A stretch of DNA of 64,000 bases from a virus: positions 13,442 through 77,441 of the IMG/VR virus record IMGVR_UViG_3300011013_000009. One strand, written 5' to 3'. A program made the translations under genes and the position numbers. The notes under the pieces were generated by a model. That model ran no database searches and had not been told where the DNA came from. It worked only from the letters and a program-made list of their open reading frames with translations. Positions 33,333 through 63,616 of this stretch are shown one piece after another. The number at the start of each line of letters is the position of its first letter. Within the stretch, counting starts at the first letter, position 1.

Positions 33333-33363
33333 TTTGAATTCTTCAGTATTTTCATTATAATAT
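33333..33363 (+). promoter_or_regulatory. Host-type promoter for primase/nuclease genes
   Basis: TTTG-N19-TATAATAT. Confidence 0.55.
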
Positions 33364-33367
33364 TAAT

Positions 33368-37440: not shown

Positions 37441-37465
37441 TATTTATAGAAAAGAGTAATGTTAA

Positions 37466-40768: not shown

Positions 40769-40817
40769 TTTTAATATTAATATAAACTAACTAGATATTT
40801 ATAATAAAGAATAAAAA

Positions 40818-44874: not shown

Positions 44875-44883
44875 AAGGATAAT

Positions 44884-45522: not shown

Positions 45523-45829
45523 AAAATATTGGAAAATAATTGCAGGTGCAATTGTAGGATTATTTGGATTAATATTTCTAGTTTCAAGAAAAATAACTGC
45601 AAACAAATTAGATAAAACAGAAGAAGAAATTGATAAAAATAATTCAAAAGTCGATAAATTATCAGGAAAATTGGAACGAATTAAAGAGGAAGAAGAAGAA
45701 GCTAAAGCAGACATTAAAAAACAAAAAAAAGATATTAAAGAGGCAAAAAAGAAAAAAGACACCGTTCCTACAACAAAGAGAACTACTGCCGATGCTAAGA
45801 AAAATATAATCAAAAAAACTCGGAAATGA
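45509..45829 (+). CDS. Membrane-anchored coiled-coil protein (spanin-like architecture)
   Basis: N-terminal TM plus charged coil. Confidence 0.45.
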   Translation: MKTIKKYWKIIAGAIVGLFGLIFLVSRKITANKLDKTEEEIDKNNSKVDKLSGKLERIKEEEEEAKADIKKQKKDIKEAKKKKDTVPTTKRTTADAKKNIIKKTRK

Positions 45830-46206
45830 AAAAATTTTTTATTATATTATTATTATTACCAGTTTTTTCGTTTACACAAACTGTTGATACTTGTTTTACA
45901 GAAGAACAAATACATGATATATCTGAAACAATAGATTCATTATATTATTTAGATTCTGTTAACAATGATATTATAATAAAACAAGACAAGTTAATATCTA
46001 GTTTAGATCGATTAAATAAATTAGATTCATTACAAAAATTATATTATCAACAACAAATTGATTTATTAAACAGTAACATTGATTTATATATTGAACGAGA
46101 AGACCTTATAAAACCAAAATGGTATGATAGCAAAATAATTTGGTTTGGTGCTGGTATATTAACTACGGTATTGACCGGAAAGTTAATTGTAGAAGTGGTT
46201 CAATAA
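45826..46206 (+). CDS. Signal-peptide coiled-coil protein with C-terminal TM (spanin-partner-like)
   Basis: MKKFFIILLLLPVFSFT-Q signal; KPKWY..IWFGAG TM. Confidence 0.45.
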   Translation: MKKFFIILLLLPVFSFTQTVDTCFTEEQIHDISETIDSLYYLDSVNNDIIIKQDKLISSLDRLNKLDSLQKLYYQQQIDLLNSNIDLYIEREDLIKPKWYDSKIIWFGAGILTTVLTGKLIVEVVQ

Positions 46207-46207
46207 T

Positions 46208-47785
46208 ATGGCTGAAAAAAATATAAAACAAATAATTGAAGAACAATATGTAAAGTGTGCAAATGATCCAGTATACTTTATGCGACAGTTTTGCTATATT
46301 CAACATCCTTTAAAAGGAAAAATCAAATTCGATTTATTTCCATTTCAAGAAGAATCACTATCTACTTTACAAAATAGTCGTTATAGCGTAATATTAAAAT
46401 CAAGGCAGTTGGGTATATCAACATTATCTGCTGGATATGCATTGTGGTCGATGTTATTTAATGAAGACTTCAACGTTTTGGTTATAGCAACAACACAAGA
46501 TGTAGCAAAAAACTTAGTAAGTAAAGTTCAAATAATGAATGAAAATTTACCTAGTTGGTTAAAAACTACAATAACAACTAATAATAAATTATCATTAAAA
46601 TTTTCAAATGGTTCGCAAATAAAAGCAATTTCAAGTGCATCAACAGGAGCTCGGTCAGAAGCATTATCATTACTAATAGTTGATGAAGCCGCATTTATTA
46701 GAAACATCGAAGAGATATGGGTGGCATCACAAGCAACGCTATCAACAGGTGGTGGCGCTATTGTTTTATCTACCCCAAATGGTTTAGGAAATTGGTTTCA
46801 TCAAATATGGGCAGATGCTGAAACTGGCACAAATGGGTTTGAAACAATTAAGTTAAAATGGGACCTTCACCCAGAACGTGATCAATCTTGGAGAGATGAC
46901 CAAACAAAGTTATTAGGCGAAAGAGGAGCAGCTCAAGAATGTGATTGTGATTTTATATCATCAGGTCATACTATTGTCGATGGGGCAATATTACAACAAT
47001 ATGAATTAAAATGTGAAGATCCGGTTGAAAAAAGAGGATATGATAACGGTTATTGGATTTGGGAATATCCAGACTATACAAAAAATTATATAGTAGTAGC
47101 AGATGTCGCAAGGGGCGATGGAGCAGATTGGTCTGCATTTCATGTAATCGATGTTGAAACAATAACCCAGGTAGCAGAGTATAAAGGAAAGCTACCACCT
47201 AAAGATTTTGGCAACATGTTAGTATCAGTTGCAACAGAATGGAATAATGCATTATTAGCAATTGAAAATGCAAATATAGGATGGGCGGCAGTACAGCCAG
47301 CATTAGATAGAGGATATGAAAATCTATTTTATACATATAAAACAGAAGGATATGTAGATTTAGAAGTACAATTACAAAAAGGATATGACATAAAAGATAA
47401 AACAAAAATGGTACCTGGAGTCTCAACTACAAGTAGAACTAGGCCATTAATGATATCTGCATTAGAAATGTATATGAGAGAAGGAACGCCTATTATTAAA
47501 TCAAAACGACTTATACAAGAATTATTTGTATTTGTCTGGCTTAACGGTAAAGCACAGGCACAGATTGGTTATAATGATGACTTAGTAATGAGTTATGCAA
47601 TAGGATTGTGGTTAAGAGATACTAGTTTAAAATTAAGACAACATGGAATTGAATTAAATAAACGAGCATTATCACAATTTAGAAAAACAGATACAACCAT
47701 TTATACTAATAATAACACAAAACAAAATGATAGTTGGAAATGGAATAATGGTTCAGAAGACGAAAATTTAACCTGGCTTCTGTAA
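46208..47785 (+). CDS. terL: Terminase large subunit (T4 gp17-like)
   Basis: LKSRQLGIST, IVDEAAFI, STPNG, AQECDCDF, ADVARGDG, NDDLVMS. Confidence 0.96.
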   Translation: MAEKNIKQIIEEQYVKCANDPVYFMRQFCYIQHPLKGKIKFDLFPFQEESLSTLQNSRYSVILKSRQLGISTLSAGYALWSMLFNEDFNVLVIATTQDVAKNLVSKVQIMNENLPSWLKTTITTNNKLSLKFSNGSQIKAISSASTGARSEALSLLIVDEAAFIRNIEEIWVASQATLSTGGGAIVLSTPNGLGNWFHQIWADAETGTNGFETIKLKWDLHPERDQSWRDDQTKLLGERGAAQECDCDFISSGHTIVDGAILQQYELKCEDPVEKRGYDNGYWIWEYPDYTKNYIVVADVARGDGADWSAFHVIDVETITQVAEYKGKLPPKDFGNMLVSVATEWNNALLAIENANIGWAAVQPALDRGYENLFYTYKTEGYVDLEVQLQKGYDIKDKTKMVPGVSTTSRTRPLMISALEMYMREGTPIIKSKRLIQELFVFVWLNGKAQAQIGYNDDLVMSYAIGLWLRDTSLKLRQHGIELNKRALSQFRKTDTTIYTNNNTKQNDSWKWNNGSEDENLTWLL

Positions 47786-47815
47786 TAAGATATATTTATA
47801 TAAAAAAAGAAAACA

Positions 47816-49636
47816 ATGGCATCATTAAGAAAACGTTTAAGAAATTTATTTTCTACTAATGTAATAGTACGTAAGTATGGAAAAGATCGTCTAAGAGTAG
47901 TCGATACTAACAGATTACAGTCATTAGGAAATTTATCACAAAGCAAGTTAACGGATAGATATAATCGATTACACGGCACAACTAAACATAATATGGGTGG
48001 TTATGGCGGATATGATTCGAATTACTACATGCAACAGAATCGTATGCAATTGTATACTGATTACGAGATGATGGATAAAGACCCAATAATATCATCTGCA
48101 TTAGATATATATGCTGACGAATCAACATTAGCAGATCAGTTCGGCGATATATTAACTATTAAAACAAATAAAACTCATATACAAAAAATATTATACAATT
48201 TATATTATGACATATTAAACATTGAATTTAATATGTGGCCATGGATTCGTAATATGTGTAAGTATGGAGATTTCTTTTTAAAATTAGATGTTGCTGAAGA
48301 AATAGGAATTTTAAATGCACGCCCACTTTCTACTTATGAAATTGAAAGATTGGAACAGTATGACGAAACAACGGGTGAATATGATATTAAATTTAGACAC
48401 GCCGCAACAGAACATTTAGAATATGATGTGTTTGAGATAGCACACTTCAGGTTATTATCAGATTCAAACTTCCTCCCATACGGCCGAGCAATGCTTGAAG
48501 GAGCTAGACAAGAATTTCAAAAATTAATGATGTTAGAAGATGCAATGCTTATTCACAGAATAATGAGAGCACCCGAAAAACGTATTTTTAAAATTGATAT
48601 TGGTAATATTCCACCCAATGAAGTTGATTCATTTATGGAAACAATTATTAATAAAATGAAAAAAATTCCATATGTTGATAAACAAACTGGTAACTATAAT
48701 CTTAAATTTAATTTGAATAATATGTTAGAAGATTATTACTTACCTGTGCGGGGAGGCAATAGTCAAACGACAATAGATACACTACCAGGAATGGAGTTTA
48801 CCGGCATTGATGACATCGAATATGTAAAACACAAAATGATGGCAGCATTGAAAATTCCTAAACCATTTTTAGGATATGATGAGGGAGTTGAAGGGAAAAC
48901 TACATTAGCGTCAATGGATATTAGGTTTGCAAGAACAATTGAAAGAATTCAAAAAATAGTTGTTTCAGAATTAGTTAAAATTGGAATTGTACATTTATAT
49001 TCTCAAGGCTATGAAGGAGATGATTTAATAGGATTTGAGTTAGAATTGACTCCGCCATCTATAATTTACGATCAACAAAAAGTTGCATTGATGAATGAAA
49101 AAGTAACTTTAGCATCTGCAATGAAGGATCTAAAACTAGTTTCAGATAAATACATTTATGAGTATATTTTCAATATGTCTGAAGATGAGTGGTTAGAAGA
49201 GCGTAATAATGTTATAGAAGATCTTAAATTAAGATTTAGACAAAATCAAATTGAACAAGAAGGTAATGATCCAACATTAACAGGAACATCATTTGGAACA
49301 CCACATGATTTGGCGTCAATTCATATGAGTACCGATGACGTAGAAGATAAAGATCCGGGGGGCAGACCACCCGAAGGAATTAAATATGGACAGCACAAAA
49401 ATGAATTTGGTTGGGATCCAACTGGGGCTAAAACAATTAAGCAAGGAACAGATCCAAACAATATCACAACCACATTCCAACCAGATCCTAGATTTAGAAA
49501 TACAAAAACAACTGTAGCAACTGAAAATGCTGATATTTTAAAGAAATTAAGACCTAAAAGCCCAAAGATTATAACAGAAGATCAAAATAAAGATGTAGAT
49601 TCTGGAACAATGTTGGACGAAGACAATATTTTATAA
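47816..49636 (+). CDS. Portal protein (T4 gp20-like)
   Basis: LMMLEDAMLIHRIMRAPEKRIFKIDIGN; MLEDYYLPVRGG; IDTLPG; ALKIPK. Confidence 0.96.
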   Translation: MASLRKRLRNLFSTNVIVRKYGKDRLRVVDTNRLQSLGNLSQSKLTDRYNRLHGTTKHNMGGYGGYDSNYYMQQNRMQLYTDYEMMDKDPIISSALDIYADESTLADQFGDILTIKTNKTHIQKILYNLYYDILNIEFNMWPWIRNMCKYGDFFLKLDVAEEIGILNARPLSTYEIERLEQYDETTGEYDIKFRHAATEHLEYDVFEIAHFRLLSDSNFLPYGRAMLEGARQEFQKLMMLEDAMLIHRIMRAPEKRIFKIDIGNIPPNEVDSFMETIINKMKKIPYVDKQTGNYNLKFNLNNMLEDYYLPVRGGNSQTTIDTLPGMEFTGIDDIEYVKHKMMAALKIPKPFLGYDEGVEGKTTLASMDIRFARTIERIQKIVVSELVKIGIVHLYSQGYEGDDLIGFELELTPPSIIYDQQKVALMNEKVTLASAMKDLKLVSDKYIYEYIFNMSEDEWLEERNNVIEDLKLRFRQNQIEQEGNDPTLTGTSFGTPHDLASIHMSTDDVEDKDPGGRPPEGIKYGQHKNEFGWDPTGAKTIKQGTDPNNITTTFQPDPRFRNTKTTVATENADILKKLRPKSPKIITEDQNKDVDSGTMLDEDNIL

Positions 49637-49675
49637 TTAACACGATATTTATATGTAAAGGAACTGTGTTTCGAT

Positions 49676-50530
49676 ATGAAAAAATTAAAACATTCTAAAT
49701 ATAAGAATACGGCAATGTTATTCGAAATTTTAGTAAGGAAATTAACATCCGAATCATTGACTTCAGATAAGTCAGTGACAATTGATATAATTAAAAAGTA
49801 TTTTGGAAAGAACACTGAGCTGTCAAAAGAACTACAATTATATAATTCATTAATAAAAGAACAATTTAAGTCAGAAGCGAGAGCATTAGATTTTATTAGG
49901 TCTTGTAAAGAGACTCACAATAAATTAAATAAATCTTTAATTAAAAGACAACGGTATAACTTAGTAAAAGAAATATCAGAAAATTTTATTTTTGATAAAA
50001 TGTCAAAAATTAGGATTAATAATTATAAACAAATTGCTTCAATATATAAATTATTTGAATATAATGAATCACACAATCCTAAACAAATTTTAGAATGTAA
50101 AGATGTAATTATAGAACATATATTAATTAAAGACACAAGTAATTCAAAGAAAAATACTATATTAGAATCATTTAAAAATCAACATAAAGATGTTCGATTA
50201 TTAACATATAAATTATTAGTTGATAAATTTAATAAAAAATATTCTGGTTTAAATGAAGCACAAAAGGATTTGCTTAATCATTATATTACTCACGTTAATG
50301 ATACTGAGTCTTTAAAGGAATATATCCACAAAGTTATTCCTGTTATTAAAAAACAATTAAAAGAACATGTTAAATTAATAGATGACAAAGTGACAAAAAT
50401 TAAAGTAGACAAATTATCAGAAATGCTTTGTAATGTTGAAACAATTAAAACTATTAAAGAATCTCATGTATTATCATTATTAAGATATTTTGATTTAATT
50501 AAAGAATTAAAAGAGGTAAATATAAAATGA
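49676..50530 (+). CDS. Conserved head-module hypothetical protein
   Basis: Between portal and protease; late motif at 49645. Confidence 0.7.
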   Translation: MKKLKHSKYKNTAMLFEILVRKLTSESLTSDKSVTIDIIKKYFGKNTELSKELQLYNSLIKEQFKSEARALDFIRSCKETHNKLNKSLIKRQRYNLVKEISENFIFDKMSKIRINNYKQIASIYKLFEYNESHNPKQILECKDVIIEHILIKDTSNSKKNTILESFKNQHKDVRLLTYKLLVDKFNKKYSGLNEAQKDLLNHYITHVNDTESLKEYIHKVIPVIKKQLKEHVKLIDDKVTKIKVDKLSEMLCNVETIKTIKESHVLSLLRYFDLIKELKEVNIK

Positions 50531-51093
50531 AATCTTTTTTAAATGAAATGGAAAAAAAGTTTAAAACTGTTAATGAAGCAGAGCTTTGCGAAGAATGTGG
50601 TATGCATGAATGTAAATGTGTAGCTGAAGCTGACATTGTAGTTAATGATCCTAAAGACATTGATACAGTAAAAAAAGAATTAGATCCAGAAGATAGATTA
50701 GTGGTAGAAGATGAATTAGAAGAAATTTCTACATCTGGAGGAGCTGGCTCATATATGACTCCAAATGCATTTGGTAAAAAGAAAAAGAACTATAAGTGGG
50801 CATCTGTTTCAGAAGCAATGGATAAAAAATATGAAAAATTAATTGAATCATATTCTAAATTTGCAATGGGTAAAGGCTCAAAAGCATCACCATCCAGAAC
50901 AGTAAATACCACTATTAGGGAAGTAGCTAAAAAATTACAAGAGATTGAGCAATTAATAAATTATACAGGTAGATTAAAAAATGAATCAGGAATGACACGG
51001 GCTGAATATGGAAAGTCTACTAACACAGCATTAAATAAGATTTCAGAACGATTATTAAAGATTTCTGAACGTGTAAGAAGATTAGGAGAATAA
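50527..51093 (+). CDS. Putative prohead core protein
   Basis: MKSFLNE start, many hydrophobic-x-E sites, CEECGMHECKC. Confidence 0.55.
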   Translation: MKSFLNEMEKKFKTVNEAELCEECGMHECKCVAEADIVVNDPKDIDTVKKELDPEDRLVVEDELEEISTSGGAGSYMTPNAFGKKKKNYKWASVSEAMDKKYEKLIESYSKFAMGKGSKASPSRTVNTTIREVAKKLQEIEQLINYTGRLKNESGMTRAEYGKSTNTALNKISERLLKISERVRRLGE

Positions 51094-51094
51094 T

Positions 51095-51718
51095 ATGTCT
51101 AAAGCTTTATTAGTAGAATATATGCCATTTAAACCTATCTCTCCATTAACTGAATCAGATGGAGCAAAATTCGGAGTACCTGGTGGAATGGTAGTTCAAG
51201 GGGTATTACAAAGAGCTGGAGCAAAAAACCAGAATGGGAGAATATACCCAAAACACATTTTAGCAAGAGAATGTGTAAGATATCAAAAAGAGTATATAGA
51301 TCAACATAGGGCATTAGGAGAATTAGATCACCCAGAATCATCAATTGTTAATTTAAATAATGTATCTCATAATGTTTTAAAAATATGGTGGGATGGTGAT
51401 AATCTTAAAGGAGCAGTACAAGTATTAGATACTCCCGCAGGAAATATATTAAAATCACTATTTAAATCAGGGATAACATTGGGGATATCTAGTAGGGGTT
51501 TAGGAAGTGTAAAAGAATTATATAAAGAATCAGCAGTTGAAGTTCAAGAAGACTTTGAATTAATATGTTGGGACTTTGTATCTAATCCGTCGACAACAGG
51601 AGCATTTATGCAACCAATGTTTGAGTCGACAAATAAAATGAATGTAATAAACAAATATGGCAGAGTAAATGAAATTATAACTTCAATACTTTGTGATGAT
51701 GGAAAATGTAGGATATAA
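51095..51718 (+). CDS. Prohead protease (T4 gp21-like)
   Basis: NQNGRIYP, ALGELDHP, VSH, GISSRGLGS, DFVSNPS. Confidence 0.95.
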   Translation: MSKALLVEYMPFKPISPLTESDGAKFGVPGGMVVQGVLQRAGAKNQNGRIYPKHILARECVRYQKEYIDQHRALGELDHPESSIVNLNNVSHNVLKIWWDGDNLKGAVQVLDTPAGNILKSLFKSGITLGISSRGLGSVKELYKESAVEVQEDFELICWDFVSNPSTTGAFMQPMFESTNKMNVINKYGRVNEIITSILCDDGKCRI

Positions 51719-51720
51719 AT

Positions 51721-52086
51721 ATGAATATTAAAGCATTAATGGAAGCGTTAGAAAGCGAACCTGTACAAGTAACCAAAGAACAAAAAAAGGCCTTTATGGA
51801 AGCAGTTCGTGGATTTTCTCAACTAGGAGAAGGCGTATATGGAAAAACTAATTTAAAAGAATTGTGTGAAAAAGTAAAATATATGGTTGAAACAGCAAAC
51901 CAAGTAACTTTAGCAGAAGGAGATTGGTTTGATGGAATGACTGTTAATAGAAACATGAAAGAAATAGCAAATTCATATAAAGTATTTGAAAAGACAGCAC
52001 AAGAAATGTCAGTATTAAGAGAAAGATTTGAAGCAGCGTTTGAAGATATTGGAAGAGGATTAAATCGATATTTTGAAATGGATTAA
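51721..52086 (+). CDS. Head-module hypothetical protein
   Basis: MNIKALMEALE start; TAGGA upstream. Confidence 0.7.
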   Translation: MNIKALMEALESEPVQVTKEQKKAFMEAVRGFSQLGEGVYGKTNLKELCEKVKYMVETANQVTLAEGDWFDGMTVNRNMKEIANSYKVFEKTAQEMSVLRERFEAAFEDIGRGLNRYFEMD

Positions 52087-52087
52087 G

Positions 52088-52119
52088 ATAGGAATATTGA
52101 AAAAAATTTATTATATTAT
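52088..52119 (+). promoter_or_regulatory. Host-type promoter ahead of the bS21 unit
   Basis: ATAG-N20-TATATTAT; TAGGA-N3-TTGAAA matches the promoter at 1223. Confidence 0.55.
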
Positions 52120-52135
52120 ATAAAAGGTAAGAAGA

Positions 52136-52534
52136 ATGTCAAGTGTTAATAATATGTATAGAAAATTTTTCGGGTTTAAGAAAATGAATGAATCGCCAGA
52201 ACTAGAAGAGGCAGATTTATTAAACCACATGACCGATTACAGAGGAGGAGTAGTTTATCAATTACATAATCCAGCAACAGCAGTTGATGTAAGAAAAGAC
52301 ATACAACAATTTGCAGCAAAAAAGAAAATGCATATTATTAAAACACAATTTAATGATGCAAAAGGATTAGGATTTTTTCAATTTAGATTAGGAGAAGACC
52401 CGGGAAAAGAATCACAAAGAATACAAGGATTCATAAGTCAATTACCAGAAGTAGTAAGATTTAAATTTACTACAGGACAGCCTACACAACCACAAGCCCC
52501 ACCACCTGCCCCACCAACAAATGATATCGTATAA
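52136..52534 (+). CDS. Hypothetical protein co-located with bS21
   Basis: 132 aa, Pro-rich tail; AAGGT upstream. Confidence 0.7.
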   Translation: MSSVNNMYRKFFGFKKMNESPELEEADLLNHMTDYRGGVVYQLHNPATAVDVRKDIQQFAAKKKMHIIKTQFNDAKGLGFFQFRLGEDPGKESQRIQGFISQLPEVVRFKFTTGQPTQPQAPPPAPPTNDIV

Positions 52535-52545
52535 AATAAGTTATA

Positions 52546-52803
52546 ATGAACAAAAAACAAAGAATGAGTAAAAAACAAAAACAACACCTATCAATAGCCC
52601 CAGGCCATGGAATTGGCGCTAAAGTCGTAGAAAAAGATATTAACTTTGCATTAAGGATTTGGAAAAGAAAATTAAAAGAATCCGATGTTTTAGTAAACTT
52701 AAAAGAAGGAAGAGAGTTTTTAAAACCAAGTGTAAAGAAAAGAAAACAAAAAATCGATGCAATATATACCCAAAAAATAAAAGACTTGCACGCAGACGAT
52801 TAG
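52546..52803 (+). CDS. rpsU: Phage-encoded ribosomal protein bS21
   Basis: DINFALRIWKRKLKESDVLVNLKEGREFLKPSVKKR is the bS21 signature; extended basic N terminus. Confidence 0.9.
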   Translation: MNKKQRMSKKQKQHLSIAPGHGIGAKVVEKDINFALRIWKRKLKESDVLVNLKEGREFLKPSVKKRKQKIDAIYTQKIKDLHADD

Positions 52804-52822
52804 ATTTTCCATATATAATAAT

Positions 52823-52852
52823 AAGTCCTAGCAGAAATGTTAGGACTTTTTT
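52823..52852 (+). terminator. Rho-independent terminator after bS21
   Basis: AAGTCCTAGCA-GAAA-TGTTAGGACTT plus T run. Confidence 0.9.
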
Positions 52853-52873
52853 ACTGTTTTTTCAAACTACCCT

Positions 52874-52981
52874 ATATTTATTGTAAATACGTTATCGATC
52901 TATATAACGTCAACGAAAATTAATTATTCTATTAAGATTCCAAATAATCTTATTTCCAAAACAAAATTTAAGGAGAAAACA
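52874..52981 (+). promoter_or_regulatory. Late promoter and structured 5' leader of the scaffold-capsid operon
   Basis: ATATTTAT 52874-81; hairpins 52889-52910 and 52933-52952; TAAGGAG 52969-75. Confidence 0.65.
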
Positions 52982-54070
52982 ATGGCAAAATCAGATTTGC
53001 TAAAAGAAGCGATTGCGGACGCTAAGGCTGTTAAAGAAACTGCATTAGCAAACGCAAAAATTGCATTAGAAGAAGCTTTTGCTCCAAGGATTCAATCAAT
53101 GTTAACAACTAAATTAGCTGAAGACGAAATGTACGAAGACGAAATGTACGAAGACGAAATGCTAGATATAGCTGAAGAAGAACCAGATGTAGACCCAATG
53201 GCTATGGAAGGCGAAATGGACTTAGAAGCTGAATTAGGTGGAGAAGCTCCAATGGATGATCTAGGTGCCGCAGGCATGGAAGATGATCTAGGCGCTGAAG
53301 CAGGCATGGAAGATGATCTAGGTGCCGCAGAAGGACCAGCATCAGTAAATATCGACGGAGTAGAATATGCTCCTGTTGGCGGTGACGACACAAGTGTTGA
53401 AGCAGATGCTGAAGAAATGGCACCACCTGTTGATGATATGGAACTTGAATCTATTATTAGAGAGCTAGAAGAAGACTTAAATGAAGAAGATAATTTAGAC
53501 GCAGTAGATGCAGAAATTGAAGTTAATGAAGGAGTCACAGGGGCTGAAGCATTAGCACCAGAAGACGAAAACTTGTCTGAAGACTTTAACATCGATGAAA
53601 TTATCGAATCTATTTTATCTGAAGAAGAAGATGCAGAAGCACCAAAAGACGAAGCAGATGCAGAATTAGATGAAGGTGAATATAAAGAAGAGCTTGAAGA
53701 AGCTTATAACACGATTCATTCACTTCGACACACAATCAATGAAGTCAATCTTTTAAATGCAAAGCTCCTTTACACTAACAAATTATTTAGGAACTTCGAG
53801 CTTAATGAAAATCAAAAAATGAAAGTAATTGAAAATTTTGATAGAGCTGGAACAACTAGAGAAGTAAAATTAGTGTTTAGTACATTAGCAGAAAGTTTCA
53901 CTGTGCCTGTTAAAAAGCGCAAAATGGTAAAAGAAAACAAAGCTTCAAAGAGCTATGCTTCTAGACCATCTGGAACTACTGCACCGAGCAAGAAAACGAA
54001 ACAAATTATTAACGAAGGAAATGAATTAGCTAATAGATGGAAGAAATTAGCTGGTTTATTGCCTAACTAA
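52982..54070 (+). CDS. Prohead core/scaffolding protein (gp22-like)
   Basis: Highly acidic, directly upstream of the capsid gene; many L/I-x-E sites; ends RWKKLAGL. Confidence 0.85.
   Translation: MAKSDLLKEAIADAKAVKETALANAKIALEEAFAPRIQSMLTTKLAEDEMYEDEMYEDEMLDIAEEEPDVDPMAMEGEMDLEAELGGEAPMDDLGAAGMEDDLGAEAGMEDDLGAAEGPASVNIDGVEYAPVGGDDTSVEADAEEMAPPVDDMELESIIRELEEDLNEEDNLDAVDAEIEVNEGVTGAEALAPEDENLSEDFNIDEIIESILSEEEDAEAPKDEADAELDEGEYKEELEEAYNTIHSLRHTINEVNLLNAKLLYTNKLFRNFELNENQKMKVIENFDRAGTTREVKLVFSTLAESFTVPVKKRKMVKENKASKSYASRPSGTTAPSKKTKQIINEGNELANRWKKLAGLLPN
53120..53161 (+). repeat. 15-nt tandem repeat (EDEMY) in scaffold
   Basis: GAAGACGAAATGTAC x2.8; further MEDDLGA repeats at about 53252-53335. 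Confidence 0.9.
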
Positions 54071-54087
54071 AGAAAAGGAAAGAAATA

Positions 54088-55737
54088 ATGAATATATCAT
54101 CATTATTAGAAGATAATAATCCGTCCCAAAGAAATCAAGCTAAAGGTTTGGTATCAAAATGGGAAAGAACAGGATTATTAGAAGGCCTAAAAAATGAAAC
54201 CGAGCGAGCAGGTATGGCACAACTTCTTGAAAACCAAGCTAGACAGTTGGTAAGAGAAGCGTCAGGTACCGGTACCGCAGAGGGATCAGAAGAATGGGCA
54301 GGGGTAGCTCTTCCATTGGTAAGAAGAATTTTTGCAGAATTTGCTGCTAAAGAATTCGTTTCTGTACAACCAATGAATCTACCATCAGGTCTAGTATTTT
54401 ACTTAGACTTTAAATATGGAACAGCACAACCTGGATTTGAAACATCAAATGCTGGTACGAACAATCCATTGAAATTTGGTTCTCCAAATGCCAATAACTC
54501 GATGTTCGGTGTTACTTCTGATGCAGGCGATCCAACTGGTGGTCTTTATGGCGCTGGTAGATTTGCTTATTCTATTAACGAAGTAGTCCAAGGAGGCACT
54601 GCTACAATAGCAAATGCTACTTCAGCATCAGTTAACTATGATAGTTCATTTACAGATGTAGCAAATTTTGCTACTTTGTATCAAGTAATATCATTCCCAA
54701 CATCATCATTAACTAGATTTGATAACACAGCTGTTAGATCATTTGTATTATCAACAGGTTCGGCAGGTACATTTACTAGTTATCCAGCATTTACTAGAAT
54801 CAATGGCGGAAATATTGATTTTGTTGTAACAGGTTCAGGAGCAGTATTAGCTGCTGGTGGATATACTTGTTCATATAGTCAACAGCCAACAGATGTAACT
54901 AGAGGTGATTTCGAAGATTCAGATCCATTTAAAGGTTCTGGTACCGGTACTGGTATTGACGATGGAACAGATATTGATATTCCTGAAGTGAATCTTGAAA
55001 TGCAATCAGATCCAATCGTTGCTAAGACTAGAAAGTTAAAGGCTGTTTGGACACCTGAATTTGCTCAAGATTTAAATGCATATCACTCAATTGACGCTGA
55101 AGCTGAATTAACTTCAATGTTAAGTGAATATGTATCGATGGAAATCGATCTTGAAATATTAGATATGCTTATCAATGGCGCAGTTACTACTGAGTTCTGG
55201 TCTGCAGAGTCTAATAAATTCTATAATGCAGCAACTAATACTTTTGATACAAAAGGTGCTGGAGCTGGTGGATATTATAATACTCAAGGAGAATGGTTCC
55301 AAACTCTTGGTACTAAACTTCAAAAAGTATCTAATACAATTCACCAAAAGACACTAAGAGGTGGAGCGAATTTCTTAGTTACTAGTCCTGCTGTTGCAAC
55401 TATCCTTGAATCTATTCCTGGATTTGCTGCTGACACAGATGGTGACAAAATGGAATTTGCCGCTGGTGTTCAAAAAATTGGTGCTATGAATAATAGATAC
55501 ACAGTTTATAAGAACCCATACATGAAAGAAAACGTAATCCTTATGGGATACAGAGGAGCACAGTTCCTTGAAACTGGAGCAGTTTATTCTCCATACGTTC
55601 CACTTATCATGACTCCATTAGTGTACGATCCTGTAAACTTCACTCCTAGAAAAGGGGTTATGACTCGTTATGCGAAGAAAATCGTAAGACCTGAGTTCTA
55701 TGGTAAAGTTTATGTAGCTGGATTAAATACTCTTTAA
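54088..55737 (+). CDS. Major capsid protein (T4 gp23-like)
   Basis: LPLVRR, VQPMNLPSGLVF, AKTRKLKAVWTPEFAQDL.A.H.IDAEAEL, YSPYVPL, PRKGVMTRY. Confidence 0.97.
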   Translation: MNISSLLEDNNPSQRNQAKGLVSKWERTGLLEGLKNETERAGMAQLLENQARQLVREASGTGTAEGSEEWAGVALPLVRRIFAEFAAKEFVSVQPMNLPSGLVFYLDFKYGTAQPGFETSNAGTNNPLKFGSPNANNSMFGVTSDAGDPTGGLYGAGRFAYSINEVVQGGTATIANATSASVNYDSSFTDVANFATLYQVISFPTSSLTRFDNTAVRSFVLSTGSAGTFTSYPAFTRINGGNIDFVVTGSGAVLAAGGYTCSYSQQPTDVTRGDFEDSDPFKGSGTGTGIDDGTDIDIPEVNLEMQSDPIVAKTRKLKAVWTPEFAQDLNAYHSIDAEAELTSMLSEYVSMEIDLEILDMLINGAVTTEFWSAESNKFYNAATNTFDTKGAGAGGYYNTQGEWFQTLGTKLQKVSNTIHQKTLRGGANFLVTSPAVATILESIPGFAADTDGDKMEFAAGVQKIGAMNNRYTVYKNPYMKENVILMGYRGAQFLETGAVYSPYVPLIMTPLVYDPVNFTPRKGVMTRYAKKIVRPEFYGKVYVAGLNTL

Positions 55738-55790
55738 TAGTTAGATAAATAAACTATTTAATTAATTATAGAATTAACAATTGAATTAGG

Positions 55791-55818
55791 AAGGGATGAT
55801 TTAGGTCATCCCTTTCTT
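55791..55818 (+). terminator. Terminator after the capsid gene
   Basis: AAGGGATGAT-TTAG-GTCATCCCTT followed by TCTT. Confidence 0.85.
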
Positions 55819-55861
55819 ACTGTTTTAATATTTATATAAAAGAATTATAGGAAAATTAACA

Positions 55862-56137
55862 ATGGCAGCAACTAGAACAAAATATTCAATGCAAACAAGA
55901 ATTCGTTACAAAGGAAATTTAGTAGATGTATTAGATCGAATAAGAGCAATTCGTCTTGTATTAATGGTTCATATCGAACAAGATCTAGGAAAGGGTGCAG
56001 AGCTAGTTACTATGAAAATAATGACACCATATCCTCCTAGACATTCATATCACGCAATTAGAAAATTATGTTTAGGTAAAATTGAAACATTAGAAGAAAT
56101 GCAATTACTAGAAACTACTTTAACAAAATTACAATAA
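55862..56137 (+). CDS. Hypothetical late protein
   Basis: Late motif at 55828; TAGGA upstream. Confidence 0.7.
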   Translation: MAATRTKYSMQTRIRYKGNLVDVLDRIRAIRLVLMVHIEQDLGKGAELVTMKIMTPYPPRHSYHAIRKLCLGKIETLEEMQLLETTLTKLQ

Positions 56138-56177
56138 TAGCCTAAATAAAATATATTTATAATAAAGGAAATAACAA

Positions 56178-57401
56178 ATGGATTACAGTGAAAATAAACC
56201 AATTTGGCCCGGAAGCTCATCATTTAGTCCAGGACAAACTCCATTTGGTTTTTTTGATAGCGATGCGCTATTTCAACAACAAGCAGACAGCTTTGCAGTA
56301 TTTGCAGCAAATAATGTTGGATATCCAATCATGGATGTCGAGTTAATAGATATAAACTTTTATACAGCATTTGAATCTGCAGTAATAGAATATTCAAATC
56401 AAGTTAATCAAGTAAACATTGCAAATAATTTATTAAACACATTAGGAATTAACACAGGGTCTCAATTTTTATCAGAAGGCAGTTTTTCAGATACATTAGT
56501 AGGTAGTTCATTATCATATATTACAAAGCTATCTAAAACATATGGAACTGAAGCAGACTCCGGAGGAAATTTAAAATGGTTTTCTGCATCAATTGATATC
56601 CAAGATGGGGTACAGTCATATAGTATACGTACAGCGGTATCTAAATCTTTAGGGATAACATTATCAGACACTAGCTCAATTGAAGTAAAAAGAGTATTAC
56701 ATAATGTTCCACCAGCAATTGTTAGATATTTTGATCCATTTGTGGGTACAGGAATGGGGTCGCAACAATTATTAGACTCATTCGACTTTGGAGGATTTTC
56801 TCCATCAGTTAATTTCATGATGATGCCTATACATCAAGACTTATTAAGAATACAATCAATTGAATTTAATGATAGAATCCGTAAATCACATTTTTCATTT
56901 GAATTACACGGAGATGATATAAGATTATATCCAGTCCCAGGAACACAAGGAACAGCTGCAACACCATATTACGATAATGTTTGGTTTGAATTTATATTTG
57001 AAGATAAAAAAGCAGATGATGCAATTTTATTCGGAAATACCGCAGCATTAACTGGAGTGGTATCCGACGTATCGAATATACCATATACGTATCAAAAATA
57101 CAGTCAAATAAATGATATGGGGCGTGCTTGGATTATAAAATATGCATTAGCATTAGTAAAAGAAATGTTAGGGTATGTAAGAGGAAAATATTCATCAGTA
57201 CCAATCCCAAATGCAGAAGTAACATTAAATGGTCCTGAATTGATATCACAAGGTACTACAGAGAAAGATGCACTTATAACTCAATTAAGAGAGTTTTTAG
57301 AAAAAATGACAAAAGAGAGTATGATGACAAGGCAACAAGCAGAAAATGATGCAATGAATGAAATTTTGTCAAAAATACCAACTAAAATTTATATAGGATA
57401 A
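56178..57401 (+). CDS. Neck/head-completion protein (gp13-like)
   Basis: VGYPIMDVEL; WIIKYALALVKEMLG.VRGKY...VTLNG. Confidence 0.85.
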   Translation: MDYSENKPIWPGSSSFSPGQTPFGFFDSDALFQQQADSFAVFAANNVGYPIMDVELIDINFYTAFESAVIEYSNQVNQVNIANNLLNTLGINTGSQFLSEGSFSDTLVGSSLSYITKLSKTYGTEADSGGNLKWFSASIDIQDGVQSYSIRTAVSKSLGITLSDTSSIEVKRVLHNVPPAIVRYFDPFVGTGMGSQQLLDSFDFGGFSPSVNFMMMPIHQDLLRIQSIEFNDRIRKSHFSFELHGDDIRLYPVPGTQGTAATPYYDNVWFEFIFEDKKADDAILFGNTAALTGVVSDVSNIPYTYQKYSQINDMGRAWIIKYALALVKEMLGYVRGKYSSVPIPNAEVTLNGPELISQGTTEKDALITQLREFLEKMTKESMMTRQQAENDAMNEILSKIPTKIYIG

Positions 57402-57404
57402 TGA

Positions 57405-57926
57405 ATGGCGTTATTTGGAACACAGAGAGATGCAAAGTTTTTAGCATCAATTAACGCAGAACTATTAAATGCGATAGTTGATACTGAAATAGAATTCTAC
57501 AAATTAATAATAGAACAATCTAATTCGAATATATATGGAGAGTCTACTTCCAAAGCATATTATGACTCAATATTAATTCCAGCATTAATTACCAAAGAAG
57601 GTAAAACTGGTACTATGGATGATTATGGACATAGTTATACCAGGACTGCACAATTTGGAATATCTAGAGATATATTAGAAAAAGCAGATTTTTATCCAGA
57701 AGCTGGAGATATTATTAAATGGGACGCAGAATATTATCAAATCGATAATGTTGATGCAAATGAATATTTTGTAGGGAAGAATCCAGAAACTTGGCCCAAT
57801 GGTGATAAATTTGGTTATAGCGTGTCTGTATTATGTGATACTCATGTAACTAGACAAACTCCGACAAATATTAGAAAAATGCGTTTTGGCAATGCAAAAG
57901 ACGATAAATCATATAAAGGATTTTAA
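57405..57926 (+). CDS. Neck protein (gp14-like head closure)
   Basis: NIYGE, YPEAGDII..D..YYQI; synteny. Confidence 0.7.
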   Translation: MALFGTQRDAKFLASINAELLNAIVDTEIEFYKLIIEQSNSNIYGESTSKAYYDSILIPALITKEGKTGTMDDYGHSYTRTAQFGISRDILEKADFYPEAGDIIKWDAEYYQIDNVDANEYFVGKNPETWPNGDKFGYSVSVLCDTHVTRQTPTNIRKMRFGNAKDDKSYKGF

Positions 57927-59149
57927 TGCCTAGATATAGACGACAAAATATCGATAGAAAAACAAATAAGCCCGAATTAAATAAAAGTGAATCTACAAGA
58001 CCGGATTTAATTTTAAATAGGGCGGAGCAAATACGAAGAGACGACGATGTTGTTCGCACTCCAAAACGTACTGTATATGATATTGATTACGCAATTAAAT
58101 GGTTTATAGAAAACGAAATACAACCACAAGTAGAAGCCAATGGAGAATTAATCGATGTTCCGGTTATTTTTGCAAATGGAGAAAAATGGGATAATGTAAG
58201 GCGATTAGGATATTTACGAGATGAAAAAGGAATGTTACAATCTCCTATTATTGTATTAAAACGAAATTCATTATCAGAAAGAGACCAATTAAGAAAATTA
58301 GATATTAATCGACCTATATCCGGAAATCAATTAATATACAAACAAAAATATAATAAACGAAATAGATATTCAGACGATTTAATTCCTATACCAATAAATG
58401 ATCCTATACAATCACAAGAATTATATACAGTAAATGTACCGGAATATGTAGATATAGAATATGATATGATGATATGGACTGATTTTACTACGCAAATGAA
58501 TGATTTAGTAGAACAAATTATGCCATATGGAACATTTGCATGGGGCAATGAATTTAATAAATATAGAACTTTTATTCGTCAAATGAGTTTCGAAACTATT
58601 AATACAGTTGGAGAAGACAGATTAATACGGTGCATAGTACCATTAACAGTCAATGGAACATTAATGGCAGAACAAGAGTATAGACAAAATGTTGTACAAA
58701 AAAGATATTCAATAAAAAAATTAGAATGGGCTACCGTGATTGATGTAGATACAAATATATTTGACACTACAATTGTCCCTCAACAATTAATAGATGCGCA
58801 ACAACGAATTATATCAGGAAATTCAGTAATTGTTTCTGGCGGTGGTAGTAGTACTACAATTGATTCATCTACATTAAACTATTTAATTAATTTGTCAGAC
58901 CAAACAGGAACATTTGTAGACACAGATACAATTACAGTATCTGCTGCAGCAGCAACTAATCCATCTAATTTAACAGTTGCAAATAAAAATGAATTTGATT
59001 TATATATTAATGGACAATATATAGATAAAGCAATTTATACATGGACTCCATTACAAACATCTCCACAAACTATAGACTTTGATACTGGTACATTAGGATA
59101 TACCCTAGATTCAGAAGATGTGATAATTATTAATGGTAGGTGGGCTTAA
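57926..59149 (+). CDS. Tail completion/terminator protein (gp15-like)
   Basis: VPVIFANGEKW; PEYVDIEYDMMIWT...QMNDLVEQI. Confidence 0.7.
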   Translation: MPRYRRQNIDRKTNKPELNKSESTRPDLILNRAEQIRRDDDVVRTPKRTVYDIDYAIKWFIENEIQPQVEANGELIDVPVIFANGEKWDNVRRLGYLRDEKGMLQSPIIVLKRNSLSERDQLRKLDINRPISGNQLIYKQKYNKRNRYSDDLIPIPINDPIQSQELYTVNVPEYVDIEYDMMIWTDFTTQMNDLVEQIMPYGTFAWGNEFNKYRTFIRQMSFETINTVGEDRLIRCIVPLTVNGTLMAEQEYRQNVVQKRYSIKKLEWATVIDVDTNIFDTTIVPQQLIDAQQRIISGNSVIVSGGGSSTTIDSSTLNYLINLSDQTGTFVDTDTITVSAAAATNPSNLTVANKNEFDLYINGQYIDKAIYTWTPLQTSPQTIDFDTGTLGYTLDSEDVIIINGRWA

Positions 59150-61449
59150 TGGCAAGACAATTTAAAAGCGGACAGTTACGAGACGATTTATCATTATCAG
59201 GCTCGTTCTCAGGATCATTTCAAGGAGATGGTTCTGGTTTAACTGGGCTACCATTAGTAGTATCAGCATCATATGCCATATCAGCATCTTATGCCATATC
59301 AGCGTCCCATGAAATTATAAAAGAGGTTTCATCATCATACGCCGACACTGCGTCTTTTGCAGAATCAGGTAATGGTATTTTTAGCGGAAGCTTTAGCGGA
59401 AGTTTTGAAGGAAATGGAAGTGGTTTAACAGATATCCCGGCGTCGGGAATTGTAGGGCTAAATTTATCACAAATTTCAAGTGGTAGTGCGACAGCATCAA
59501 TTTCACCTGATAAAGGGTTACAGATAAATACAGATACCACAATTACAGGTTCATTAACAGCTTCAGGTAGCTTAACTATACAAGGATCATCTAGTTATGA
59601 AGGCGGAAGTATAACATTAGATACAACTACTTTACCAAGTCTACCAGGTAGCGATACAAAAGTAAGTATAGGAGTAGGTGGTTCCGGAGCCCCACAAAAA
59701 ACATTTCAAATTTATACCAATGCAGGGTATGTTCAAGTAGGACCCGTAAATGGTTCATATTCACATTTCCTAACAGATAGGTCCAAATTCTATTTTAATA
59801 AACCTCTTCAAGTAGAGGGTGAAGTAATGAGTCATGTTGGTCAAGATTTAGTATTAGGAAGTAGAGGAGGAACTAGTGATACAATTACAATAGGCACTAA
59901 TGATATTATATTTGAACTAAATAATAATAATATATTCTACATGACTACAGGTAGTTCAGGTTTAGATTCAATATTAAGTGGTAGTGCATCATCAACAGCA
60001 TCCTTTGGAACTTATTTAGGGGATGGTTCCCAATTAACAGGTATTGTTACAGACCCATTCCCTTATACAGGAGATGCTTCAATAACAGGTTCATTAACAG
60101 TATCAGGTTCATTTGTACCTCATGGTAAAGCCGGAATTGATAATGTTATAATAGGAGATGGTGCAGGTGCCATAGCAAACGCTCAGACAGCCTATAATGT
60201 ATTCGTAGGACGAAATGCAGGAGGTAATGACAATGATTTTGGAGATCAAAATGTATTAGTAGGAAATGAAGCAGGATATTTAGGTAACCAAACTGGAAAC
60301 ACTTCTATAGGTTACCATGCAGGAAGAGGATGGGGAACAACAGGGACTACTCCAACAATAGGATATAATACTTCTATAGGTTATCAAGCTGGATATGGAG
60401 CAGCTACTAGAACAACTGCTATACATAATACCCTTTTAGGAGCATTTACTGGAAGAAATATAAACCCTTTTGGTGGTGGAAATGGAAATGGCAATGTATT
60501 AATAGGATATTACGCAGGATATGAAAATGTAGGAGATGGAAATATTATAATTGGTTCAGGTAGTATAGGTGAAGACTATATGACAAACCAACTTCGAATA
60601 GGTAATGGAAATGATTTAGTCACAATCTCAGCTTCTTTAGCAACTGGTGATATTATTTTCCCAAGTACTGCTTCAGCAGCATACTTTGTAGGTGATGGTT
60701 CACAATTAACAGGAATAGTTTCATCATCTTATGCAATATCTGCTTCATACGCAGTAAGTGCATCCCATGAGATAATAAAAGAAATATCTTCCAGTTACGC
60801 TGATACTGCATCTTTTGCACAAAGCGGAAACGGAACATTCTCAGGTTCATTCTCAGGAAGCTATGTTGGAGATGGTAGTGGTTTAACAGGTGTAGACCCA
60901 TTCCCATTTTCAGGTTCAGCAGTAATAACAGGAAGTTTAGTAATATCGGGTTCAAGCAAACCATTAGAAGTAATTGGAAGCGGTTCAACGGTATTTAGTG
61001 TAGTAGGTAGTTTAGGAGAATTATTTGCTATAGACGATGTTTTATCAGGCTCTTTATTAGTAATAAACGATGCTTCTGGAATACCCCAATTTGAAGTATT
61101 CTCAGATGGTAGAACTTTAATAGGAGCAGACCCTCGTTCATTATATACTACTGCGACTATAAGCGCAACAGCAGCTGCTACATCGGAATCCATATATTCA
61201 TTGAGTACTAGTTCATATGACGGTGTATTCTTTGATTATACCATAAGTTCTGCATCAAATGCTAGAGCAGGAAACATAATGTCAATATGGAATGGGGGTA
61301 GTTTAGTTTACACAGAAAATACTACAACTGATATAGGATCAACAACAGGAGTTATATTTAATGTAGAAATTTCCCAAAGCCAAGCACAACTAATTTCAGT
61401 AACAGATACTGCAGGATGGAAAATTAAAACAACAATAAGATCAATATAA
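59149..61449 (+). CDS. Tail fibre protein (likely start ATG 59149)
   Basis: SASYA repeats, GDGSxLTG modules, NTSIGYxAG adhesin-head-like repeats. Confidence 0.75.
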   Translation: MARQFKSGQLRDDLSLSGSFSGSFQGDGSGLTGLPLVVSASYAISASYAISASHEIIKEVSSSYADTASFAESGNGIFSGSFSGSFEGNGSGLTDIPASGIVGLNLSQISSGSATASISPDKGLQINTDTTITGSLTASGSLTIQGSSSYEGGSITLDTTTLPSLPGSDTKVSIGVGGSGAPQKTFQIYTNAGYVQVGPVNGSYSHFLTDRSKFYFNKPLQVEGEVMSHVGQDLVLGSRGGTSDTITIGTNDIIFELNNNNIFYMTTGSSGLDSILSGSASSTASFGTYLGDGSQLTGIVTDPFPYTGDASITGSLTVSGSFVPHGKAGIDNVIIGDGAGAIANAQTAYNVFVGRNAGGNDNDFGDQNVLVGNEAGYLGNQTGNTSIGYHAGRGWGTTGTTPTIGYNTSIGYQAGYGAATRTTAIHNTLLGAFTGRNINPFGGGNGNGNVLIGYYAGYENVGDGNIIIGSGSIGEDYMTNQLRIGNGNDLVTISASLATGDIIFPSTASAAYFVGDGSQLTGIVSSSYAISASYAVSASHEIIKEISSSYADTASFAQSGNGTFSGSFSGSYVGDGSGLTGVDPFPFSGSAVITGSLVISGSSKPLEVIGSGSTVFSVVGSLGELFAIDDVLSGSLLVINDASGIPQFEVFSDGRTLIGADPRSLYTTATISATAAATSESIYSLSTSSYDGVFFDYTISSASNARAGNIMSIWNGGSLVYTENTTTDIGSTTGVIFNVEISQSQAQLISVTDTAGWKIKTTIRSI

Positions 61450-61453
61450 TGTT

Positions 61454-62200
61454 ATGTCATTACGAAGAGGACCAAAATCAATAGTAACTGAAGGGTTAGT
61501 ATTTTATATAGATGCTGCTAATCCAAAATCATATGTAAGTGGTAGTACTACAACAAATAATCTAACTAACACAGATGAAATTGGAAATTTAATAAACAAT
61601 ACAGGTTTTTCCACAGACAATCAAGGAACTTGGGTATTTGATGGTGTTAATGATTATATAACATTTGGGGATCTAACATCCATAAACCCTGAATTAAATA
61701 GTTTTACTTATAATATATTTTTTAAAATAGACCCTACTACCTTAACAACTAATATAATTTCAACTAAGGGAAGTAGTTCATCTAATTTAATTGGTTGGGC
61801 GATATTTTATGCAGATGTAAATGGAGTAATAGAAATTAGATGTAATGGGAATAATAGTTTAAGTCAAAGAGCTGGTCAATATATATCCATAAATGAAAAC
61901 CAAATTTATATGGTTAGTTTAGTTATTAACCGAACTGATAACACAATAAAAGGTTATTTAAATGGTAGTAATAATAATTGGGATGATGGTAATTTTGGTG
62001 GAGCTTTTACTACTAACTCTATTACAGGATTTGGATCAATAGTATCCCCAGATGACTTTTTTATTGGAAGAAGAAGTAATATTGGTACTCCTTTACCTAT
62101 GCTTGGTAACATTTATTTAGTTAATTGTTACAATAGAGCTTTATCAGCAGATGAAGTCCTACAAAATTATAACGCATTAAAAGGAAGATTTGGATTATGA
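61454..62200 (+). CDS. LamG/ConA-like lectin-fold protein
   Basis: IVTEGLVFYIDAAN..SY; FDGVND; YNRALSADEVLQNYNALKGRFGL. Confidence 0.88.
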   Translation: MSLRRGPKSIVTEGLVFYIDAANPKSYVSGSTTTNNLTNTDEIGNLINNTGFSTDNQGTWVFDGVNDYITFGDLTSINPELNSFTYNIFFKIDPTTLTTNIISTKGSSSSNLIGWAIFYADVNGVIEIRCNGNNSLSQRAGQYISINENQIYMVSLVINRTDNTIKGYLNGSNNNWDDGNFGGAFTTNSITGFGSIVSPDDFFIGRRSNIGTPLPMLGNIYLVNCYNRALSADEVLQNYNALKGRFGL

Positions 62201-63590: not shown

Positions 63591-63616
63591 TTATTTTTTA
63601 ACATATTTATAATAGA

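Follow-up and report, generated by a model that had tools for sequence, protein, structure and literature searches.

Phage ribosomal protein bS21 and Shine-Dalgarno sites on the virion genes of a T4-like phage and its relatives

The 64,000-nucleotide stretch of DNA analysed here (the window) comprises bases 13442-77441 of a linear 77,441-bp contig, IMG/VR record IMGVR_UViG_3300011013_000009, and belongs to a T4-like myophage that encodes a homologue of ribosomal protein bS21 among its head genes. Within this genome the virion genes carry Shine-Dalgarno (SD) sites in their leaders and the early genes do not, and across related phages the bS21 gene and SD-bearing late genes co-occur near-exclusively.

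The bS21 gene and the leaders of virion and early genes

Judged by its sequence, the open reading frame (ORF) at 52546-52803 is bS21. The product scores 33 bits with Pfam PF01165 (curated cut-off 27), its residues 27-76 align with profile positions 4-54 of 55, and all 37 of the close homologues, which range from 75 to 85 amino acids (aa), carry PF01165. The gene and its immediate neighbours are arranged as follows:

52136..52534, plus strand: 132-aa gene, first in the bS21 transcription unit, with a variant of the late-type motif and an AAAGG core at 52123-52127
52538..52545, plus strand: SD-free bS21 initiation region, conserved AAGTTATA directly 5' of the ATG; the 25 nucleotides (nt) upstream are without GG
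52546..52803, plus strand: phage ribosomal protein bS21, 85 aa
52823..52857, plus strand: intrinsic-terminator-like hairpin and T-run at the end of the bS21 unit, an 11-pair stem followed by TTTTACTGTT
52874..52887, plus strand: late-type promoter-like motif ATATTTATTGTAAA, 5' of the scaffold gene, one of 23 intergenic ATATTTAT(A/T) sites
52970..52975, plus strand: putative SD AAGGAG of the scaffold gene, 6 nt 5' of the ATG at 52982, duplex energy -8.2 kcal/mol
52982..54070, plus strand: scaffold (prohead core) protein, acidic and repeat-rich
54074..54079, plus strand: putative SD AAAGGA of the major capsid protein (MCP) gene, 8 nt 5' of the ATG at 54088
54088..55737, plus strand: MCP, T4 gp23-type (Pfam PF07068, E = 1.4e-76)

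The 132-aa gene that opens the unit has no family match in Pfam or PHROGs. The 23 late-type motifs all lie outside the early region, 13-36 nt 5' of an ATG, and the same motif is found at matching positions in Flavobacterium phage vB_FspM_immuto (NC_055915, Immutovirus; hereafter immuto), the closest cultured relative, whose genome is complete at 160 kb. (A sigma-70 consensus scan of 51900-54300 did no better than on shuffled sequences and was not used for promoters.) Because bS21 lies in a late-type operon, it is expected to be co-expressed with the virion genes and not to be made ahead of them.

To place these leaders in the genome as a whole, genes were assigned to blocks. PHROGs profiles named head, tail and DNA-metabolism genes, and Pfam was used for bS21 and the MCP. 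Most small genes had no match in PHROGs, and gene classes were therefore set by block and promoter type and not by function. The blocks, with the number of genes that have an SD core (defined below), and the landmarks named by PHROGs are:

115..1287, plus strand: last three early cassettes, before the ATGs at 205, 866 and 1288; about 17 further copies lie upstream of the window
14986..32685, plus strand: baseplate/tail block, SD core in 11 of 15 genes
19296, plus strand: baseplate wedge protein
32693..43997, plus strand: DNA-metabolism block (endonuclease, primase, SbcC-like protein, PNK-domain protein), SD core in 0 of 5 genes
44026..63877, plus strand: head/packaging/virion block, SD core in 16 of 23 genes
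46208, plus strand: TerL
47816, plus strand: portal
51095, plus strand: prohead protease
56178, plus strand: head-tail adaptor

We defined an SD core as 4 nt, containing GG and located at -17 to -4, that are complementary to the 16S rRNA 3' tail of Flavobacterium johnsoniae (ACCUCCUUUCU), a tail that may not be the host's own. A preliminary description of this DNA had listed 20 starts with motifs of the AAGGA, TAGGA or GAGGT type, and all 20 are confirmed, with the motif 4-10 nt 5' of the ATG; examples are AAAGGAG with a spacing of 5 at 17435, GAGGT with a spacing of 9 at 50527, and ATAAGGAAATCGAAATG before the minus-strand gene that ends at 12542. The starts it had named as free of SD (205, 866, 1288, 9006, 11429, 14208, 33368 and bS21) indeed have no core with GG, and neither do the late exceptions it had conceded at 18361, 40818 and 47816.

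Counted over the whole contig, SD cores precede 27 of the 38 genes of the virion blocks (71%) and a single one of the 46 early and DNA-metabolism genes (Fisher p = 3.7e-12). Internal ATG codons, which served as the control, have a core in 279 of 1721 cases (16%), so that the virion blocks exceed background (p = 2e-13) and the early small genes fall below it (1/41, p = 0.015); between 2100 and 14984 of the window the count is 8 of 27. Note that one cassette recurs in most of the early leaders, which hence do not amount to 41 independent samples; collapsed by similarity, they form 24 clusters, two of which have an SD core. The comparison of pairing energies that had been suggested as a check gave the same picture, as duplexes with CACCUCCUUUCU averaged -2.26 kcal/mol for 42 early genes and -3.97 kcal/mol for the other 72 (Mann-Whitney p = 8e-4). 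Of 38 motif-bearing genes, 33 have the motif at a spacing of 4-10 nt, and the commonest cores are AAAGGA (10 genes) and AGGA (7), then AAGGA, AAAGG and AGGAG. The leaders of virion genes thus carry SD sites that are putative sites of pairing with the ribosome. Portal and TerL, of which few copies are needed, are without SD; the MCP, scaffold and protease genes have one.

The early genes, about 20 in number, are each preceded by a repeated promoter-leader cassette consisting of GATT(T/A)GG, about 19 nt, TATATTTAAG and a 25-nt A-rich leader that lacks GG and ends in AAGAGATATG. Bacteroidota promoters have the form -33 TTTG / -7 TAnnTTTG, which the cassette resembles. In immuto, whose host is known, the early cassette has the same build: GTTG, about 19 nt, TATATTTAGG and an A-rich leader. 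Upstream of the window, at contig bases 149-3159, twelve tiny, closely spaced ORFs have in common the initiation region AAACCAAAA(C/G)AAAGAAGATG, which is devoid of GG and differs from the cassette leaders found at other early genes.

We considered the possibility that AGGA belongs to the late promoter or to the 5' end of the transcript, and rejected it. Many SD-bearing genes, such as those at 17435, 21185, 27965, 44884, 51095 and 57926, lie inside operons and have no promoter motif; moreover, immuto has the same promoter motif without AGGA. In several late genes that lack an SD, the ATG lies so close to the late motif (13-14 nt beyond the motif's first base) that an SD would not fit. The ATGs so placed are those at 2100, 5628, 8181, 10185, 30847 and 63617 (for example ATATTTATATAAAATG), and immuto has three sites with an ATG similarly close to the motif. 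If the late motif is a -10-like element, the mRNAs of these six genes would be leaderless or nearly so.

The contig has about 30% G+C and almost all of its genes are on the same strand. No terminal repeats were seen on its 77,441 bp, and no tRNA genes were found within the window. It is probably about half of a genome, because bS21 homologues occur on contigs of up to 157-169 kb. Megablast of 10 kb against the phage collection gave no match. Elsewhere in the window, three tandem paralogues of 248, 227 and 237 aa at 61454-63590 match phrog_8510 or phrog_24074 (virion structural protein), and the leaders of the last two are near-identical, with the cores AAAGGA and GGGAGGT. Three proteins, encoded at 5628-6485, 6962-7966 and 30847-32685, weakly match endolysin families; the last of them (612 aa) is encoded in the tail block and could be a virion-associated lysin.

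Related phages with and without bS21

Three scans of IMG/VR with MCP queries yielded 203 loci, 168 of them non-redundant. In 57 scorable loci a profile of phage bS21 proteins located the gene 1.3-4 kb 5' of the MCP gene, and a further 54 loci cover the stretch 5' of the MCP gene and lack bS21, which gives 111 non-redundant loci in total. SD-rich loci make up 52 of the 57 with bS21, and SD-poor loci 53 of the 54 without it. The mean SD fraction is 0.58 in the former and 0.16 in the latter, against controls of 0.15 and 0.17, respectively (p = 1e-17). At the orthologous MCP start, which is marked by a conserved N-terminus, an SD core is present in 56 of the 57 bS21-bearing loci and in 14 of the 54 bS21-less ones. 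An unbiased count of upstream 5-mers agrees with these figures: TAAGG, GGAGA, AGGAG, TAGGA and AAGGA are enriched 8-13-fold in bS21-bearing loci, which alone have a peak of G at -11 to -8, whereas the top upstream 5-mers of bS21-less loci consist of A and T only. This phage belongs to an MCP clade of 85 rows, about 22 of which are bS21-less; none of these 22 or so has an SD core at the MCP gene.

The complete genome of immuto illustrates the bS21-less state. Immuto shares with this phage the order of the early small-gene cluster, baseplate, primase, TerL, portal, protease, scaffold and MCP genes; the MCPs are 57% and the proteases 53% identical, and the C-terminal 117 aa of the scaffold protein are 46% identical to immuto gp067, which has the same position. 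Nevertheless, SD cores precede only 3-6% of immuto genes in every block, below background, and no bS21 is encoded genome-wide. Neither immuto nor any of four further bS21-less records (27-99 kb) gave a match to the Pfam S21 profile. A tblastn search of the phage collection with the bS21 protein was likewise empty at E <= 1e-3, a result that served solely as evidence that no close bS21 is encoded by immuto. The possibility that gp069, which occupies the bS21 position in immuto, is a cryptic bS21 was rejected, as it is an unrelated acidic protein of 75 aa. An expectation that relatives without bS21 would lack the SD pattern is therefore borne out, by immuto and by the 53 SD-poor loci alike. In a second bS21-bearing record, SD cores precede 2 of 32 genes in a non-structural stretch and 10 of 31 in the structural locus. 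(A further stretch, L206 of record G005, was fetched for its early genes and proved to be another SD-rich structural block, offering no contrast between early and late genes.)

The bS21 gene itself starts without an SD core in about 40 of 49 loci, one clade being the exception, and in many relatives it is preceded by AAGTTAT-ATG. A start that is mostly free of SD is as expected for a protein that would have to be made by unmodified ribosomes. In the clade of L053, L057, L065, L070, L072, L079, L080 and L081, bS21 has a short N-terminus (MTDRVY..) and K or R in the column of Tyr54 (see below), and the bS21 gene itself has an SD-like ATAAGGAA..GGTTATG, in which all other clades differ.

The association between bS21 and SD sites is strong and arose more than once, although its independence of descent falls short of a formal standard. 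In the MCP tree (which may differ from a tree of genomes) this phage lies in a clade that is wholly bS21-bearing and SD-rich, and the sister clade, with immuto, is wholly bS21-less and SD-poor. Further bS21-less, SD-poor groups (L048/50/52/67, L159-161, L042 and L198/L058) are interleaved with bS21-bearing, SD-rich ones. Parsimony on this tree counts 6 changes of bS21 and 8 of SD, and in the four independent pairs that can be drawn SD changes the same way as bS21 in three or four and never the opposite way. An approximately unbiased (AU) test rejects a tree with all bS21-less rows on one side of a branch (log-likelihood difference 110, p = 0.009), for a group that was defined after the tree had been seen.

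These data bear on the idea that bS21 and SD sites were merely inherited together, with no functional link, through shared descent and linked loss by exchange of modules. The countable transitions are few, as just given, and the sign test on them is not significant. Furthermore, one lineage, L063/L175, bears bS21 and yet lacks SD, with a core before a single gene out of 18, and the MCP gene has none. (This lineage is the sole clear case of bS21 without SD; its bS21 gene is located elsewhere, about 4 kb upstream of the MCP gene, and has the shortest N-terminus of the set.) However, the SD sites of this phage stand on dozens of unlinked leaders spread over more than 40 kb, so that no single recombination event would remove them along with bS21, and they are absent from every block of immuto and from each nested bS21-less group. 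Moreover, the site before the MCP gene is kept in 56 of 57 loci despite divergence of the flanking leader, and a single split between bS21-bearing and bS21-less phages is the arrangement that the AU test rejects. We thus regard simple co-inheritance as quite unlikely.

The host of this phage is most likely a member of the Bacteroidota, class Flavobacteriia, because the early promoters have almost the same form as those of immuto, the best solved match of the bS21 protein is that of F. johnsoniae, and the closest metagenome-assembled genome (MAG) bins are of Flavobacteriia. A host outside the Bacteroidota, which would have spoken against the preliminary description, is not indicated by any of the three. 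MAG bins that hold related MCP contigs (L208-L230) are of mixed taxonomy, with 11 of 23 assigned to Bacteroidota; the two closest matches are one Flavobacteriia and one Flavobacterium bin, and one of these two contigs bears bS21. The remaining bins (Woesebacteria, Bifidobacterium, Microbacteriaceae and more) look like cases of mis-binned phage contigs. (A word-based protein search with bS21 returned metagenomic phage-type bS21 only and no cellular protein, and was uninformative on the host.)

A difference in host could in principle account for the association, if bS21-bearing phages grew on bacteria that read SD sites and bS21-less phages on Bacteroidota that are blind to them. The contigs are metagenomic and lack known hosts, and the mixture of bins would suit this account. 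Set against it are the bS21 protein, which is closest to that of F. johnsoniae and has the Bacteroidia-specific Tyr, and the two closest MAG matches, in Flavobacteriia and Flavobacterium bins with bS21 present in one. It is the worst-fitting of the alternatives because the early genes of this phage avoid SD cores (1/41 versus 16%) and stand behind cassettes of the Flavobacterium-phage type, and we consider it very unlikely.

A possible effect of phage bS21 on host ribosomes

The best solved match of the phage protein is F. johnsoniae bS21 (7jil chain z), to which phage residues 30-80 align without gaps on host residues 10-60. Y74 of the phage protein is therefore the equivalent of host Tyr54, which stacks on A1534 of the 16S rRNA (PMC7797042); the column lies 14 residues after the K of the KPS motif. 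The caution, raised in the preliminary description, that the phage protein may keep the host's sequestering Tyr was thus correct. Among 57 related phage proteins this column holds Y or F in 29 and R, K, V or E in 28. Loss of Tyr54 as the mechanism is accordingly rejected, both for this phage, which keeps Y74, and generally, as the residue does not correlate with SD across the 57 proteins. What sets the phage proteins apart is the N-terminus. Ahead of the position of host residue 10 this phage has 30 residues, the host 9 and related phage proteins 17-39, and the resulting basic extension, of about 21 aa here, is common to phage proteins and absent from the host protein, with a K/R-rich stretch, then a hydrophobic residue and PG. 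In other words, the 85-aa protein shares with Bacteroidia-type bS21 the aromatic residue at the Tyr54 position and departs from its short form of about 64 aa, which has no such extension. At 52546-52581 an imperfect 18-nt tandem duplication at the 5' end of the gene gives MNKKQR-MSKKQK; the 85-aa form with this duplication is confined to the closest relatives (89-99% identical), and most homologues have 79 aa and lack it.

In F. johnsoniae, when bS21 is lost, truncated or carries a Y54A change, the anti-SD is freed and SD-bearing messages are translated more (PMC9976891, PMC13000457), with a 2-5-fold increase for SD reporters upon loss or mutation of bS21 (PMC9976891, PMC7797042, PMC13000457). 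The 13-bp helix formed on rpsU clashes with the C-terminal helix of bS21, and in other bacteria the SD-anti-SD helix runs between the two bS21 helices (PMC9976891, PMC13000457).

Read most simply, these observations suggest that phage bS21 probably lets host ribosomes use SD sites and that the virion mRNAs are marked for such ribosomes; this is what we propose. In a Flavobacteriia host the anti-SD tail of the 16S rRNA is held in the pocket of bS21, bS18 and bS6. Early and DNA-metabolism genes have host-style A-rich leaders without SD, and the virion genes have short SDs (mostly AAAGGA and AAGGAG) that unmodified ribosomes would read poorly. Phage bS21, made from its SD-free start in the head block, would enter the host 30S subunit, either replacing host bS21 or where host bS21 is absent, and the anti-SD of the resulting 30S would pair with mRNA, such that SD-led virion mRNAs would be favoured over host and early mRNAs. 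The SD-free start would allow unmodified ribosomes to make bS21 and might limit bS21 later. The anti-SD would be liberated or stabilised, possibly via the basic N-terminal extension; if phage bS21 does retune it, this must happen by a route other than loss of Tyr54. The chances seem to us evenly balanced that matters go as far as this, namely that phage bS21, by means of its extension and not of Tyr54 loss, turns the SD-blind 30S of Bacteroidota into one that reads SD sites, with SD-marked virion mRNAs preferred and the SD-less mRNAs of the host, the early genes and bS21 itself losing out.

The preliminary description had cast this as a translation switch driven by bS21. The part that concerns the distribution of SD sites, on late and not on early genes, stands; the word switch calls for caution, since bS21 is co-expressed with the virion genes and not made ahead of them. 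A feed-forward amplifier would therefore be a better description than a prior switch.

The foremost rival holds that the phage bS21 is host-like, leaves the anti-SD sequestered and does no more than supplement or stabilise ribosomes late in infection, with the AGGA motifs serving otherwise, in recognition by host ribosomes free of bS21, in mRNA stability or in the binding of a phage factor. This phage conserves both the equivalent of Tyr54 and the C-terminal helix, a host-like role is what Chen et al. 2022 (PMC9723584) concluded, and wild-type F. johnsoniae has a sizeable pool of bS21-free ribosomes that read SD sites (PMC13000457). This account leaves unexplained, however, why SD-rich late genes occur almost only beside a phage bS21, why 28 of 57 proteins have R, K, V or E in the Tyr54 column, and why all phage proteins have an N-terminal extension that the host protein lacks. 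In addition, with more bS21 of the sequestering kind, the phage's own SDs would be used less. We consider a purely host-like bS21 unlikely.

Several points weigh against our proposal that phage bS21 opens host ribosomes to SD sites. First, the retained Tyr54 equivalent and host-like C-terminal helix predict sequestration, and Chen et al. 2022 (PMC9723584) read the conservation of this Tyr as a sign that the protein blocks the anti-SD in the host manner. Second, the SD fraction is alike in phages with an aromatic residue (0.56) and with R, K, V or E (0.60) in the column, and as Tyr54 status does not track SD use, it offers no mechanism at the level of a residue. Third, bS21 lies behind a late-type promoter and so would not be made before the late mRNAs, and the SD sites are short, at 5-6 nt. 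Fourth, the correspondence among relatives has exceptions, in the L063/L175 lineage, in four further bS21-bearing loci just below the SD threshold, and in the 14 bS21-less loci with an SD-like motif at the MCP gene, which belong to a distant 53-row MCP clade with no bS21-bearing member. Fifth, the sign test on the four independent pairs gives p = 0.125, the contrasts being too few, a larger tree has only two pairs on well-supported branches, and the grouping for the AU test was chosen post hoc. Finally, the host, the incorporation of phage bS21 into ribosomes and its effect on translation are all things that we infer, and the link between bS21 and SD sites is correlative.

The proposal nevertheless gives phage bS21 a concrete class of targets, SD-led virion mRNAs in a phylum of hosts that ignores SD, and close relatives that have neither bS21 nor SD sites are natural controls. 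Reporters, depletion strains and methods for cryo-electron microscopy exist for F. johnsoniae, which makes the idea testable. If true, it would be a clear case of a virus altering the rule by which cellular ribosomes select mRNAs by means of one small protein, with consequences for gene calling and for the prediction of expression in phages of Bacteroidota.

Comparison with known systems

bS21 is by far the commonest ribosomal protein encoded by phages (PMC9976891), and published readings either allow that it might direct ribosomes towards phage mRNAs or equate its action with that of the host protein. Our search of the literature found no report that ties phage bS21 to SD sites on phage genes; in particular, PMC7797042, PMC9976891, PMC13000457 and Chen et al. 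2022 (PMC9723584) do not draw this link, and PMC13000457 does not mention phage. For the bS21 of Pelagibacter phage HTVC008M, incorporation into E. coli ribosomes has been reported (Mizuno et al. 2019, as cited in PMC9976891). Like the phage studied here, HTVC008M is T4-like and encodes bS21, but its host is of another phylum and no SD-linked role of its bS21 is known to have been described; a tblastn search of the phage collection with our phage bS21 gave no match at E <= 1e-3, so the HTVC008M protein is a distant one.

In the bS21-encoding myophages that Chen et al. 2022 (ISME Commun 2:31, PMC9723584) assigned to Bacteroidetes, the bS21 gene lies within a conserved block of TerL, portal, prohead protease and MCP genes, just as here (TerL 46208, portal 47816, protease 51095, bS21 52546, MCP 54088), and, as here, an aromatic residue occupies the position of Tyr54. 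The role that they proposed is substitution into host ribosomes late in replication. The paper mentions Shine-Dalgarno three times, and the passages retrieved by our search contain nothing on phage leaders. In the present phage the late leaders bear SD sites, bS21-less relatives are free of them, and the aromatic residue is missing from half of the related proteins.

The specialised ribosomes of F. johnsoniae and its autoregulation of rpsU (PMC7797042, PMC9976891, PMC13000457) offer a parallel in principle, in that sequestration or pairing of the anti-SD depends there on the bS21 status of the 30S subunit. There, it is the absence of bS21 that frees the anti-SD, to the benefit of a single gene, rpsU, with a 13-bp SD; here, it would be the presence of a variant bS21 that does so, for dozens of SDs of 5-6 nt. 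The SD-free start of the phage bS21 gene is the reverse of the arrangement at F. johnsoniae rpsU.

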